The notes under the pieces: model-generated | Database searches by the model: none | Told to the model about the DNA's origin: nothing | Seen by the model: only the letters and a program-made list of their open reading frames with translations | Translations under genes and position numbers: made by a program | Shown: positions 2 through 4,736 of the stretch, piece by piece | Position numbering within the stretch: the first letter of the stretch is position 1 | Layout: every line of letters begins with the position of its first letter | Source of the DNA: a virus | Taxonomy: Duplodnaviria; Heunggongvirae; Uroviricota; Caudoviricetes | Length of the DNA stretch: 4,828 bases | Reading direction: 5' to 3' (one strand) | Virus record (IMG/VR): IMGVR_UViG_2526164661_000010 | Location: 1 to 4,828 of that record

Positions 2-1273
2 ACCCAAATCGCAAGCACGGCTTATGTGATGGCCGCGATTGCCGCCCTTGTAGATTCGTCACCTGATGCACTGAACACGCTGAACGAGCTGGCGGCGGCG
101 CTGGGAAACGACCCGAATTTTGCGACCACCATGACTAACGCGCTTGCGGGTAAGCAACCGAAAGATGCCACCCTGACGGCGCTGGCCGGGCTTGCTACTG
201 CGGCAGACAGGTTTCCGTATTTTACGGGGAATGATGTCGCCAGCCTGGCAACCCTGACAAAAGTCGGGCGGGATATTCTTGCGAAATCGACCGTTGCCGC
301 TGTTATCGAATACCTCGGTTTACAGGAAACGGTAAATCAGGCTTCTGGAGCATTACAGAAAAACCAGAACGGCGCAGATATTCCGGGAAAAGATACCTTC
401 ACCAAAAATATTGGGGCCTGCCGCGCATATGGCGCATGGCTGGATATTGGTGGCGATAATCAGGTCTGGACAACCGCGCAATTTATTTCGTGGCTGGAGA
501 GTCAGGGAGCATTTAACCATCCTTACTGGATGTGCAAAGGCTCATGGGCTTATGCAAATAATAAGGTCATTACAGATACAGGTTGCGGAGATATTTGTCT
601 TGCAGGTGCTGTGGTGGAAGTTATTGGCACTCGCGGCGCAATGACCATACGCGTTACCACGCCGAGTACGTCCAGCGGCGGCGGAATTACTAACGCTCAA
701 TTCACTTATATTAATCATGGTGATGCTTATGCTCCTGGCTGGCGACGGGACTACAACACGAAAAATCAACAACCTGCATTTGCTTTAGGGCAAACAGGAA
801 GCACTGTCGGAAATGATAAAGCTGTTGGCTGGAACTGGAATAGCGGGGTCTATAACGCAAGCATTGGTGGCGCAACAGCATTAATCCTCCACTTCAATAT
901 GAATACGGGGAGTTGCCCTGCCGTACAGTTCCGCGTGAATTACAGGAATGGCGGTATTTTTTATCGTTCAGCGCGTGATGGTTATGGATTTGAAGCTGAC
1001 TGGTCAGAGTTTTACACCACAACCCGCAAACCCTCTGCGGGGGATGTTGGTGCATATACTCAGGCAGAATGTAACTCAAGGTTTATTACAGGTATTCGCC
1101 TTGGCGGTCTGTCATCTGTTCAGACATGGAATGGTCCCGGCTGGTCTGACAGGTCAGGTTATGTCGTTACGGGTTCAGTTAACGGAAACCGTGATGCATT
1201 AATTGATACAACTCAGGCAAGGCCAATTCAGTATTGCATTAATGGAACGTGGTATAACGCGGGGAGTATTTAA
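2..1273 (+). CDS. Phage tail fibre protein, 5'-truncated at window edge: conserved shaft segment fused to variable C-terminal tip (Sv, currently in the expressed orientation)
   Basis: Reading frame is open from nt 2 with no stop before the TAA at 1271-1273, so the GTG/ATG at 26 in the ORF track is internal. Translation contains the segment [63 protein letters not shown], which I recognise as the conserved region of Mu S / P1 S / P2 H-type fibres. The 26-bp crossover site sits in-frame at 303-328. Confidence 0.9.
303..328 (+). repeat. Invertase crossover site, left (gix/cix/pix-like, 26 bp): ttatcgaatacctcggtttacaggaa
   Basis: Two mismatches to the Mu gix sequence TTATCCAAAACCTCGGTTTACAGGAA as I recall it. 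It is present as an inverted copy at 3537-3562 and lies inside the fibre ORF at the constant/variable junction. Confidence 0.85.
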
Positions 1274-1275
1274 TC

Positions 1276-1809
1276 ATGATGCACTTAAAAAACATTACTG
1301 CTGGCAACCCTAAAACAAAAGAGCAATACCAGCTAACGAAACAATTTAACATCAGATGGCTTTATACAGAGGATGGGAAAAACTGGTATGAGGAACAAAA
1401 GAACTTTCAGCCTGATACGTTGAAAATGGTCTATGACCATAACGGCGTTATTATTTGTATTGAAAAGGATGTTTCGGCAATTAATCCGGAAGGCGCAAGC
1501 GTCGTTGAATTACCTGATATTACAGCAAATCGCCGTGCTGACATTTCGGGTAAATGGATGTTCAAAGATGGCGTAGTGGTAAAGCGAACTTATACCGGGG
1601 AAGAGCAGAGGCAGCAGGCGGAAAATGAAAAGCAAAGCCTGTTGCAACTTGCCAGAGATAAAACCCAGTTATGGGACTCACAGCTACGGCTGGGCATCAT
1701 TTCCGACGAGAATAAACAAAAATTAACCGAGTGGATGCTCTATGCGCAGAAAGTCGAATCCACAGACACCTCCAGCCTGCCAGTAACATTTCCCGAACAA
1801 CCTGAATGA
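1276..1809 (+). CDS. tfa: Tail fibre assembly protein (Tfa chaperone) paired with the expressed fibre tip
   Basis: ATG at 1276 sits 2 nt after the fibre stop, with GGGGAG at 1261-1266 as RBS. The 177-aa product begins [18 protein letters not shown] and contains [12 protein letters not shown], typical of e14 TfaE / Mu U-like assembly proteins. Stop TGA at 1807-1809. Confidence 0.9.
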
Positions 1810-1812
1810 GAC

Positions 1813-1839
1813 AAGGCCCGATAGCGGGCCTTAATTTTT
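1813..1839 (+). terminator. Hairpin terminator between the convergent tfa genes
   Basis: Stem aaggcccg (1813-1820), loop atag, stem cgggcctt (1825-1832), followed by aattttt. It is flanked by the inverted final codons of the two tfa genes (cctgaat at 1801-1807 and attcagg at 1841-1847). Confidence 0.6.
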
Positions 1840-2365
1840 ATTCAGGCTTTTGTGGCCATTCAGGATTTGCCGTATCCACACGGCTTACCATAACACTGTA
1901 GCGTTCCCATGACTCCAGTCGTGCGCGTTCCTCATCCGTCGCCATATTCAGCCTGACGGCGCGTTCCAGTGGCTGAATAACGCTTTCCGCTTCGGAAAGT
2001 AACGTGGCCTTTTGTGATTCGGCCTGTTGTTGCTGTTCGTCTGCCGTATAAATCCGTTTAACCACAGCTCCATCCTTAAACATCCACTTCCCTGAATCAT
2101 CGGCCCGACGATTGGCTGTTATATCGGGGACTTCAACAACGCTAAAGCCTTCAGGATTAAGTGTGGAGGCATCTTTAGTGATGGCTACAATAATATTATT
2201 TTCATCGTAAACAATCTTTATTGTGTCTGGCTGAAAATTCTTTACCTCTTCATACCAGTTCTTCCCGTCTTCAGAGTAAAGCCAGATAACTCCGTGCTTC
2301 TTTGTTAACTCATACTGCTCCGGTGTTTTAGCATTACCAGCTTTTATGTTCTTTAAGTGCATCAC
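1838..2365 (-). CDS. tfa: Tail fibre assembly protein, alternative copy (tfa') paired with the silent fibre tip
   Basis: The 175-aa product begins [47 protein letters not shown], resembling e14 TfaE as I recall it. The N-terminal two thirds are similar to the + strand Tfa and the C-terminus is divergent. Start is GTG at 2365 or ATG at 2362. Confidence 0.9.
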
Positions 2366-2366
2366 A

Positions 2367-3536
2367 TTAAACGCTCGCTACATTATACCAGGTGCCATTT
2401 ATATACTTTTGAACAGGTCTGTAATAAACGCCAGCTATATTATCGGCAGAGTGGGACCCTGTATCCTGAACATTTATACCAGACAGTACATGACCTGAAG
2501 GGCACTGGAAATTCCATGTTTGCCAGTTGTTCACTCCATAATATTGCTGTGAACCAAGTCTGATATCTCTCACATAGCGGGAATCAATGTTACCCCAGTT
2601 GCTTGGTTGTATCTGACCGTTTACAGCAAATATCACTGAGTTATCTGTATTTCGCTGACTATAGAAATGCCAGCCTGAATCATCACCAAGCTCTGCAACA
2701 GTTGGTCTTGACGAATTTCCCCACAAGTTAAATGATGCATTACGGGCAGAGTTATTTGCACTTGCAAGAGTGAATAGCTTACTTTCCCCAGCCTGAATAC
2801 CCTTTAATGATATTGCTGAACCATTTCTAAAGCGGAATACATGCACACCATTAGCATAAGCATCCAGCACCCCATCACCATTTTGTTTAAACCCGGTATC
2901 GTTATCTCCTAAAACAATCGAGTTACCGCCAAGAGCACTGGATGTTCCGATGCCCAGTGCACCATTCAATTGACCGCCAGATAATGACAACGCCCCAACC
3001 TCAGCAGCAGTCGGTTTAATGTGCGAACTGTAAATTACATATACAGTTCCATCTGTCAGACCTGTTGGTTTATTCGCTGTATAAGATGGTGATGTATGAA
3101 TCGTTACGCTGGCGTTACTGGTATAATCCCACTGAATATTAACACCTGTGGCGTAATTACCTATTTCAACATAAACATCATAGGTATTACCGGATGTATT
3201 CACCCATGCAAAATTAGTAAATCCAACCGATGTCCGTCGCCATAATGCACCAGTAATACCTTTTGGATTCCCATTTCCGGCACGCAGAACCAGCTCAGAG
3301 ATGCCTGCTTGATGCGAGGAGCCAACGTTATACCCTGCACCACCAATCAGGCTTATGTAAACCACGGAACTGGCCTGTGGCATGGTTACAGTTGCCAGTT
3401 TGAACCATCCAGCACCACCACTAAAAGACATGGTTGTTGAATTTGTTGTGCCGATATTACGCAGGAATAGTTTTTTATCGGGAATATCTGCGCCGTTCTG
3501 GTTTTTCTGTAATGCACCAGAAGCCTGATTTACCGT
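2367..3536 (-). CDS. Alternative tail fibre C-terminal variable segment (Sv'), start-less; expressed only after inversion fuses it to the constant fibre region
   Basis: The minus-strand frame is open from the right crossover site through to TAA (reverse complement of 2367-2369). Reading from the site it translates [20 protein letters not shown], identical to the + strand fibre after the left site, then diverges. The ATG at 3431 given by the ORF track is an internal Met, not a true start. Confidence 0.8.
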
Positions 3537-3562
3537 TTCCTGTAAACCGAGGTTTTAGATAA
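3537..3562 (-). repeat. Invertase crossover site, right (inverted copy): reverse complement ttatctaaaacctcggtttacaggaa
   Basis: One mismatch to the Mu gix sequence as I recall it and 24 of 26 identical to the left site, in inverted orientation, 55 nt upstream of the invertase start. Confidence 0.85.
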
Positions 3563-3616
3563 TGGCCGTTTCTGGCCTGCATGGCATGATTTGCGCTTTT
3601 GGACGGGAGATTCAGT

Positions 3617-4207
3617 GTGCTGATTGGCTATGTAAGGGTATCAACAAATGACCAGAATACAGACCTGCAACGAAACGCTCTTGTTTGTGCAGGATGTGAA
3701 CAAATATTTGAAGATAAATTAAGCGGGACAAAGACTGACCGACCGGGATTAAAACGCGCTTTAAAGCGCCTTCAACAAGGTGACACGCTGGTTGTCTGGA
3801 AACTGGATCGCCTCGGGCGAAGCATGAAACATCTGATTTCTCTCGTCGGGGAACTACGGGAGCGAGGGATTAATTTTCGTAGTCTGACCGACAGCATAGA
3901 TACATCTTCTCCAATGGGGCGTTTTTTCTTCCACGTGATGGGTGCCCTGGCTGAAATGGAACGTGAATTAATTGTTGAACGTACACTGGCCGGACTGGCG
4001 GCAGCGCGCGCACGGGGGCGCACAGGCGGACGTCGACCGAAGCTGACAAAAGAACAGCATGAGCAAATAGCAAGGCTGATTAAAAACGGTCACGACAGAA
4101 AACAACTGGCAATAATTTACAGCATTGGTATATCGACAATTTATCGTTACCACCCCGCAGGAGAATCAAGTGGAACAATTGAGAAGAGTAAACAAAATAA
4201 CCGCTAA
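3617..4207 (+). CDS. pin: Site-specific DNA invertase, serine recombinase of the Gin/Pin/Cin/Hin family
   Basis: From the GTG at 3617 the translation reads (V)LIGYVRVSTNDQNTDLQRNALVCAGCEQIFEDKLSGTKTDRPGLKRALKRLQQGDTLVVWKLDRLGRSMKHLISLVGELRERGINFRSLTDSIDTSSPMGRFFFHVMGALAEMERELIVERT..., near-identical over the catalytic domain to Gin/Pin as I recall them. Catalytic Ser codon at 3641-3643, C-terminal HTH, RBS GGGAGA at 3605-3610. The TTG at 3599 in the ORF track is probably not the real start. The symbol is a family-level guess; gin/cin/pin naming depends on the host element. Confidence 0.9.
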   Translation: MLIGYVRVSTNDQNTDLQRNALVCAGCEQIFEDKLSGTKTDRPGLKRALKRLQQGDTLVVWKLDRLGRSMKHLISLVGELRERGINFRSLTDSIDTSSPMGRFFFHVMGALAEMERELIVERTLAGLAAARARGRTGGRRPKLTKEQHEQIARLIKNGHDRKQLAIIYSIGISTIYRYHPAGESSGTIEKSKQNNR

Positions 4208-4227
4208 TCTGGCCATTAGCGGTTTTT
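4199..4227. terminator. Bidirectional rho-independent terminator between the convergent invertase and tail genes
   Basis: Stem ccgctaat (4201-4208), loop ctggcc, stem attagcgg (4215-4222), then TTTTT (4223-4227) on the + strand. The reverse complement is followed by TTATTTTGTT on the minus strand. The stem overlaps the invertase stop codon. Confidence 0.7.
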
Positions 4228-4235
4228 GTGTTAAA

Positions 4236-4724
4236 TCAGAACAGCCCTTTAACGGAGCTGGCCGCGCTGTTAAGGGATGATGTGACCTTATCTTTGAAGC
4301 CGGACAGCATATCGCTGAACGATGAGGATTGCAGGCGCTCCCGCAAATCCTCATCACAGCGTTCAAGGGTCAGTGAAAATTCTATTTTTTTCGCCTTACC
4401 GTAGCGATCAAATTCAGAGCGGGTCGTATTCGTTCCGGTCAGGACATACATGCCGTAAATCTGCCCGACACCATCAATCAGAGGCCAGGGGCGTCCTGTA
4501 TATGCCTGCGTGGTCAGCAGCGACAGCGACACTTCGCCACCTGTAATTTCAGGATAAAGCACACCGGAAAGCACGATGCGATCATCACCTGCACCGATAT
4601 ACTGCCAGCTTGCTGAACGGTTAACGCGTTCATTTTTCACATGCCGCCAGCTTTTGTTTTGCTGTAACTGCTGATGCGGCAGCGTGCGCAGCTCAAAAAC
4701 AAACATGCCGTAGATCATCATCAT
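4236..4724 (-). CDS. Phage tail protein, P2 gpU-like
   Basis: About 162 aa, MMMIYGMFVFELRTLPHQ...SGVLYPEITGG...GRPWPLIDGVGQIYGMYV..., which matches my recollection of the P2 gpU family (size, MMM start, LYPE.TGG and WPL.DG..IYGMYV motifs). RBS GAGGAG lies 8 nt upstream of the ATG at 4724; the ORF track starts at the in-frame ATG at 4730, only 2 nt from the RBS. Product assignment is from memory, not a search. Confidence 0.7.
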   Translation of the reverse strand: MMMIYGMFVFELRTLPHQQLQQNKSWRHVKNERVNRSASWQYIGAGDDRIVLSGVLYPEITGGEVSLSLLTTQAYTGRPWPLIDGVGQIYGMYVLTGTNTTRSEFDRYGKAKKIEFSLTLERCDEDLRERLQSSSFSDMLSGFKDKVTSSLNSAASSVKGLF

Positions 4725-4736
4725 GACCATGACTCC

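Follow-up and report, generated by a model that had tools for sequence, protein, structure and literature searches.

The only known requirements of Gin and Hin are 26-bp crossover sites and a distant enhancer. The fibre genes on which such invertases act are reportedly mosaics with conserved joint motifs, as is said to have been described by Sandmeier et al. in 1992 and 1994 and by Haggard-Ljungquist et al. in 1992. In-frame fibre-coding repeats that are longer than the core site are already known from phage P1, whose arms measure 636 nt at 98% identity. In phage Mu, the repeat has a length of 34 bp (PMC4406740), which places it at the short end of the known length range. Inversion of the fibre segment has also been demonstrated experimentally in P2-like prophages of E. 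coli (PMC4272514).

The locus described here lies in the window, i.e., the whole stretch of 4,828 nucleotides that was analyzed. It very probably represents a switch of the Mu G-segment type in a P2-like prophage, whose long repeat arms are due to a linker shared by both fibre tips, termed class A below, and not to an extended recombination site. By its inferred chemistry, the Gin-family invertase encoded at 3617-4207 would exchange strands at the dinucleotides 315-316 and 3549-3550. Inversion would flip a segment of 3.2 kb, thereby fusing the constant 5' part of the fibre gene to one of two tips, A1 or A2, together with the chaperone of that tip. The features of the window are compiled in Table 1.

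Table 1. Positions of genes, crossover sites, repeat arms, and regulatory elements in the window.
Feature	Coordinates	Strand	Remarks
Tail-fibre constant part (Sc), 3' end, truncated by the window start	2..316	+	Frame open from nt 2
Left crossover site, 26 bp, gix-like	303..328	+	Two mismatches to Mu gix, both in the outer half
Left arm extension, encodes the class-A linker	329..384	+	Sequence shared by at least four tip families
Variable fibre end, expressed (Sv; tip A1 'GKDTF'); homologous to Mu S' (G(-) fibre)	317..1273	+	
Tail-fibre assembly chaperone of tip A1 (Mu U'-like)	1276..1809	+	Pfam Caudo_TAP, E = 3.8e-37
Hairpin terminator separating the two convergent cassettes	1813..1832	.	
Tail-fibre assembly chaperone of the silent tip	1838..2365	-	Pfam Caudo_TAP, E = 1.7e-37
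Silent alternative fibre end (Sv', tip A2 'DKKLF')	2367..3548	-	Open frame from the crossover to the stop at 2367
Right arm extension, same class-A linker	3481..3536	-	
Right crossover site, 26 bp	3537..3562	-	Central dinucleotide 3549-3550
Gin/Cin/Pin-family serine DNA invertase	3617..4207	+	Pfam Resolvase and HTH_7
Presumed recombinational enhancer, 5' end of the invertase gene	3635..3706	+	Assigned by homology
Two-way hairpin terminator between invertase gene and tail gene	4199..4224	.	
P2 gpU-type tail protein	4236..4730	-	Pfam Phage_P2_GpU, E = 1.5e-38

The gpU-type gene indicates that the host element is P2-like, and the related complete records with the same gene order comprise P2-like prophages of Xuanwuvirus and E. 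coli chromosomes. In homologous loci, a tail fibre of 700-775 aa with Phage_tail_fib and Phage_fiber_2 domains extends into the position of 2..316. The match between the window and Mu begins precisely at position 303, at the left site, which reads TTATCGAATACC-TC-GGTTTACAGGAA with the central dinucleotide at 315-316. The expressed end Sv matches PDB 8ju3, an entry for the Mu S-S' fibre, with E = 1.9e-215 over residues 102-423, and its DNA is 92-93% identical to that of Mu, D108, and P88. The same entry, which includes the linker, has been identified as the structure of the Mu S', or G(-), fibre (PMC11821841). The silent end Sv' lacks a start codon of its own at the junction, and its nearest phage relatives are Mu-like Yersinia phages, with about 80% amino-acid identity. 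Both ends are alike only in their first 37 and last ~76 residues, and the two chaperones are 59% identical to each other. Searches in Pfam gave no match for the last 151 residues around the junction, even at E = 10, and NCBIfam had no match for either fibre end.

The cassettes resemble each other at their inner ends too. The tip ends at 1230-1273 and 2367-2410 share the motif INGTWYN(A/V)(G/A)S(I/V), and the 5' ends of the chaperone genes form a 64-nt inverted repeat (1277-1340 and 2301-2364, 77%). The outer half of the right site contains an in-frame TAA (3555-3557, minus strand) two codons before the crossover (I*NLGL), which prevents read-through into the silent fibre frame. This 'I*N' outer half is frequent in P2-like prophages; Mu has Gln (IQN) on both sides. 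In one locus (L193, 150-3222), the stop-bearing outer half flanks the segment on both sides, and neither tip seems joined to a constant part. In RefSeq, the silent end of two related loci (L003, 3867-4793; L227, 2667-3782) is listed either as a 'missing N-terminus' pseudogene or, from an internal ATG onwards, as a 'hypothetical protein'. Neither label presents it as an alternative 3' end of the fibre gene.

As judged from its sequence, the locus is a switch of the Gin/Cin/Pin/Hin type and, within it, of the Mu G-segment type. The two sites are inverted, with centres TC and GA, and the right one has a single mismatch to Mu gix. The invertase contains the Resolvase (2.1e-50) and HTH_7 (3.5e-13) domains of Pfam and is 85% identical to Mu Gin and 74% identical to P1 Cin. 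The first 114 nt of its gene agree with Mu gin at 113 positions and span the stretch annotated as enhancer in P1, the record of which puts this element at cin nt 19-90. A putative cis enhancer may therefore be assigned to the 5' part of the invertase gene; its function is presumed. The contents of the segment fit a Gin-type switch as well, with two opposed 3' gene ends, each with a chaperone, and with the constant 5' part and the promoter lying outside. A search of the window allowing up to six mismatches to the consensus found just one pair of crossover sites. Multiple-inversion systems, such as Min of p15B and the shufflons, were ruled out, as there are only two sites. The long repeats of the P1 C-segment type are not present either: the arms measure 82-89 nt here versus 636 nt in P1, so that the principle is shared and both scale and sequence differ.

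A first-pass annotation of this DNA, made from the letters alone, had reported that 303-384 and the reverse complement of 3481-3562 are identical at 79 of 82 positions, with two mismatches in the core site and one at 349. Pairwise alignment of 280-440 with the reverse complement of 3425-3585 returned exactly this count. Identity starts at 303/3562 and ends at 384/3481 and is thus not confined to the 26-bp core. Two of the mismatches, 308 and 311, fall within the outer half-site of the core; at the third, 349, GGA stands opposite GGT and both code for Gly. Inside the invertible segment, the arms agree at 67 of 68 bases. A repeat search of the window recovered the same pair of arms as 303-391 and 3474-3562 (89 nt, 93%). 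Translation of both strands also bore out the claim that the two orientations encode one in-frame linker of about 19 residues, since the 19 residues past the core are identical, or 23 when counted from the crossover dinucleotide. The identity of the DNA ends abruptly at 385, and a weaker protein motif, P-x-K-x-x-F-x-x-N-I-G, goes on to about nt 415.

The chance probability of a match of at least 79 of 82 bases is ~1e-43 for a single placement and ~1e-36 over the window as a whole, and the top inverted-repeat score in the window was 73 compared with a maximum of 24 among 30 shuffles. Chance is excluded as the source of the arm match. The window is one entire 4828-bp contig (AIGT01000019.1) of the draft assembly GCA_000250075.2, which might raise the suspicion of an assembly error. 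However, complete genomes contain the same arms, as do metagenome and viral contigs of independent origin, and these independent assemblies refute an artefact; an origin of the repeat from misassembly of a short draft contig or from a random match has next to no probability. The breaks of the draft assembly on the two sides of the switch fall within the fibre gene and the tail genes. Position 349/3514 is a three-state synonymous site, with GGC in the common haplotype, GGA in the left arm of the window, and GGT in its right arm. Among the 80 class-A arms first surveyed, GGA at 349 occurred in the window alone, and it was later seen also in the near-identical elements L219 and L220.

The opposite orientation of the segment exists in nature. 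In a metagenome scaffold (L219), the counterpart of 303-3562 is 99.7% identical to the window and lies inverted between flanks of 97.9% and 98.5% identity. In a four-way junction alignment, positions 308 and 311 segregate with the flanks and the A/T difference at 349 with its tip. This behaviour places the exchange between nt 312 and 348, an interval that includes the dinucleotide 315-316 and leaves out the distal 35 nt of the extension. The same flipped state was found in a P2-like context in L177. Comparison of the window with these two loci indicates that the segment inverts and that exchange would occur at the core site. The predicted flipped junction (Sc, linker, and DKKLF tip) is present at full length and at least 98% identity in 19 complete E. 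coli genomes, and the unflipped type is present in 109 genomes. The first-pass annotation had put the true border of constant and variable fibre at about nt 385 and not at the crossover site. For the protein this limit stands, whereas the limit of the invertible DNA stays at the core site, given the exchange interval in L219.

The same tip pair has been encountered elsewhere. In a 188-kb draft contig (L220, 5028-8753), the same segment has the constant part (IEYLGL) on both sides, after which the contig ends; this looks like an assembler tracking both orientations of a mixed population. Plasmid pL25922_3 of E. coli ATCC 25922 (L232, 3231-8358) carries the tip pair on a replicon of about 48-94 kb. 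P2-like tail genes adjoin plasmid repA in this replicon, which suggests that it is a phage-plasmid. A lambdoid prophage (L218, 2755-8243) has the pair, in the flipped state, on a side tail fibre of 1057 aa beside gpJ and Lom. Its invertase is truncated to 64 aa, and the switch is probably frozen.

The last case bears on the idea that the extension serves as a back-up switch, in which general recombination of the host would invert the segment in frame without the invertase. An exchange anywhere in 317-384 would yield the same protein, and in L218 a flipped cassette pair lies beside a truncated invertase. Nevertheless, L218 may have been frozen after an inversion mediated by its invertase, the sole exchange that can be mapped falls in 312-348 and not in 350-384, and no sign of selection for such a property was seen. 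A back-up role of the arms is therefore regarded as highly unlikely, and any use of the extension as a substrate of general recombination would be incidental.

The length of the arms can be understood from a comparison across related loci. These were gathered from viral contigs with the core half-site and a degenerate linker pattern, and phage and E. coli records were added. For each locus, inverted sites were paired, and the inward identity was measured from the crossover. A scan of genome contigs with the degenerate linker pattern gave two matches, neither of them informative; the survey thus covers viral contigs, E. coli genomes, and a few assemblies, and it consists mostly of prophages of E. 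coli and Shigella with many close relatives among them.

The sequences flanking the sites on the inner side sort into few linker classes, A to D. Class A is a 20-residue sequence found before at least four unrelated tips (GKDTF, DKKLF, DKDRF, and NKDKF). Class B begins with ETVNRARNAVQKNGDTLSGG... and is of the Mu S type, class C is characterized by ...GDKMTGEL..., and class D by RELGTSGEK.... In 37 site pairs, repeat length tracks the pairing of linker classes with no exception. Inward of the crossover, identity extends over 70 nt in A/A pairs (8/8), 21-30 nt in A/B pairs (17 pairs, Mu among them), 29 nt in A/C pairs (five), 7-9 nt in B/D pairs (three), and 145 nt in the D/D pair (one). With E. 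coli chromosomal and metagenome loci included, the A/A count rises to 16/16, and the gapless extension rule reaches 80 nt in one locus (L228). The arms of the window measure 82 nt because both of its tips belong to class A. In L215, tip A2 (DKKLF) stands opposite a class-B tip and keeps its full linker, and the repeat is just 22 nt long. As the linker is retained there despite a partner of another class, it belongs to the tip cassette.

The first-pass annotation had attributed the identity of the arms either to selection for an in-frame constant linker or to homogenisation of the arms. In the latter case, gene conversion or repeated homologous exchange at the locus would keep the arms identical, in accordance with the 67 of 68 bases that agree within the segment; 68 nt suffices for RecA-dependent exchange. 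The arms of one locus are, however, no closer to each other than are those of different loci. Within loci, the mean number of differences over 68 nt is 1.6 (n = 16 loci), compared with 1.8 between opposite arms of different loci (n = 240 comparisons), the values of the first sample being 1.5 and 2.3, respectively. Among arm pairs from different loci, 49% differ at no more than one base. Since divergence within and between loci is so similar, local homogenisation is unnecessary for explaining the identity.

The distribution of variants points in the same direction. Rare variants are mostly confined to a single arm (L005, L077, L218, L228, and L232), the A2 linker is present even with the class-B partner in L215, and the window arms differ at 349, a difference that stays with the tip in the flipped L219. 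One linker haplotype accounts for 32 of the 56 A1 arms and is also found on A2, A3, and A4 tips. Two loci do carry the same rare variant in both arms (AAC>AAA in L225, TTA>TTG in L226), so that arm-to-arm conversion may occur occasionally, but it is not what keeps the arms alike. Homogenisation at the locus is accordingly a quite improbable explanation, and this half of the earlier proposal is disfavoured, the linker being intrinsic to each tip cassette.

The other half, selection on the linker peptide, is supported by codon diversity. In the linker, diversity at codon positions 1 and 2 is 0.009-0.011 and at position 3 0.045-0.054, i.e., about 5-fold lower at the former, which indicates purifying selection on the peptide. 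The observation made in the first-pass annotation is confirmed, and its interpretation is correct in part. Third positions are themselves conserved: in A1 cassettes, the linker (0.045-0.054) is 4-5 times less diverse than the adjoining tip (0.17-0.24), which could reflect a constraint at the DNA level or repeated exchange through the linker, beyond selection on the protein. In all linker classes, diversity climbs from the site towards the tip, and in the A2 lineage, the linker value of 0.070 does not fall below that of most of the tip (0.019-0.114). A DNA-level constraint on the linker was set aside, because the gradient is common to all classes and A2 shows no excess conservation. The gradient can be read as what is usual for fibres, whose shaft is conserved and whose tips evolve fast and are exchangeable.

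A function of the extension as DNA, either as an accessory part of the recombination site or as the promoter of the invertase gene, would agree with the low third-position diversity and with the position of the right arm, which lies 55 nt before the start codon of the invertase gene. However, 28 of the 37 site pairs, including that of Mu, have just 7-35 nt of inward identity, and the natural exchange maps to the core site. No sigma-70-like promoter was found in 3380-3700, and the whole window is poorer in promoter-like sites than its shuffles; a promoter in the right arm was rejected on the result for 3380-3700. Rfam gave no match anywhere in the window. Such a function is exceedingly improbable.

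According to the preferred explanation, that of a shared class-A linker, the repeat would exceed the core by 56 bp because both tips open with the same conserved 23-residue shaft unit, followed by x-K-x-x-F-x-x-N-I-G. Purifying selection would keep this unit, which phages of the Mu, P1, P2, and lambda types would share through common ancestry and the exchange of cassettes. The identity beyond the core would be superfluous to the site-specific reaction and would not depend on arm-to-arm homogenisation at the locus for its upkeep.

A putative structural role of the linker is suggested by the sequence of the shaft. The crossover site codes for F-I-Q-N-L-G-L-Q-E. The class-A unit ends with F-T-K-N-I-G, or with F-L-R-N-I-G in the second tip, and this end corresponds to the outer half-site, decayed at the DNA level. 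In the constant part of Mu, a tandem copy of the linker unit lies directly upstream of gix (AMDNANARLAKDRNGADIPNKPLFIQNLG, then 32 residues). In two other loci (L143, ~8000-8400; L207, ~2206), the entire unit occurs twice in tandem along with the site-like FIDNLGLRD, which gives two site-like sequences in direct orientation. The tandem copy in Mu and the duplication in L143 indicate that the extension constitutes a further period of a ~31-residue shaft repeat, with the site embedded in that repeat. It is conceivable, although on balance doubtful, that the site has a non-arbitrary place in this period (...NGADIP-x-K-x-x-F-I-x-N-L-G-L-Q-E-x-V-N-x-A...), that class-A tips keep a further period with a decayed half-site, and that the common register provides a ladder of in-frame joints for both the invertase and the homologous exchange of cassettes. 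If true, this would account for the tip pairs shared by Mu-, P1-, P2-, and lambda-type fibres, as well as for the discrete classes of repeat length.

For the annotation of the locus, the limit between the constant and variable parts of the protein should be set at about nt 385, while the exchange point of the DNA remains at 315-316. Neither "pseudogene" nor "hypothetical protein" is an appropriate label for the silent fibre end (2367-3548). The length of the repeat reports whether the two tips share a linker class, which is handy for reading such loci, and the class rule warns against taking long arms for extended recombination sites. The observations made here comprise the anatomy of the locus, a family-wide rule for repeat length, a natural flipped state, and the position of the exchange. 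They have little importance beyond annotation and represent an expected property of a known system.

Among the known systems, the Mu G segment aligns with 303-3562 from end to end and has the same 26-bp sites and central dinucleotide. The close similarity extends to the invertase, with its near-identical gene 5' end, and tip A1 and its chaperone correspond to the S'/U' pair of Mu. In contrast to Mu, the element in the window is P2-like (gpU, tape measure, and baseplate genes) and not a transposable phage. Its second tip is another class-A tip instead of Mu S, which explains the repeat of 82 nt versus 34-41 nt in Mu. The outer half-sites of the window are moreover unlike each other, and the one on the invertase side carries the stop codon.

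The C segment of P1, with its cix sites and Cin, shares repeats that reach far past the crossover into coding DNA, so that an in-frame stretch of fibre is common to both orientations, and its tips and chaperones are homologous to those of the window. On the other hand, the arms of P1 are eight times longer and stop just short of a remnant Mu-type junction (NLNLQETVN), its two tips bear different linkers, and Cin is the more distant invertase. The fibre segments of E. coli P2-like prophages (Xuanwuvirus; EPEC E2348/69) have the same succession of fibre, chaperone, chaperone, silent fibre end, invertase, and gpU, but their tip pairing and repeat length vary by strain, the inward identity being 7 nt in phage 503458 and 70 nt in E. 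coli O169:H41. The mosaic tail-fibre genes share with the window a conserved shaft motif ahead of unrelated receptor-binding tips. The cassette pair of the window occurs on P2-like, Mu-like, P1-like, phage-plasmid, and lambdoid fibres, and the window is one more combination of this kind, with no substantive difference.
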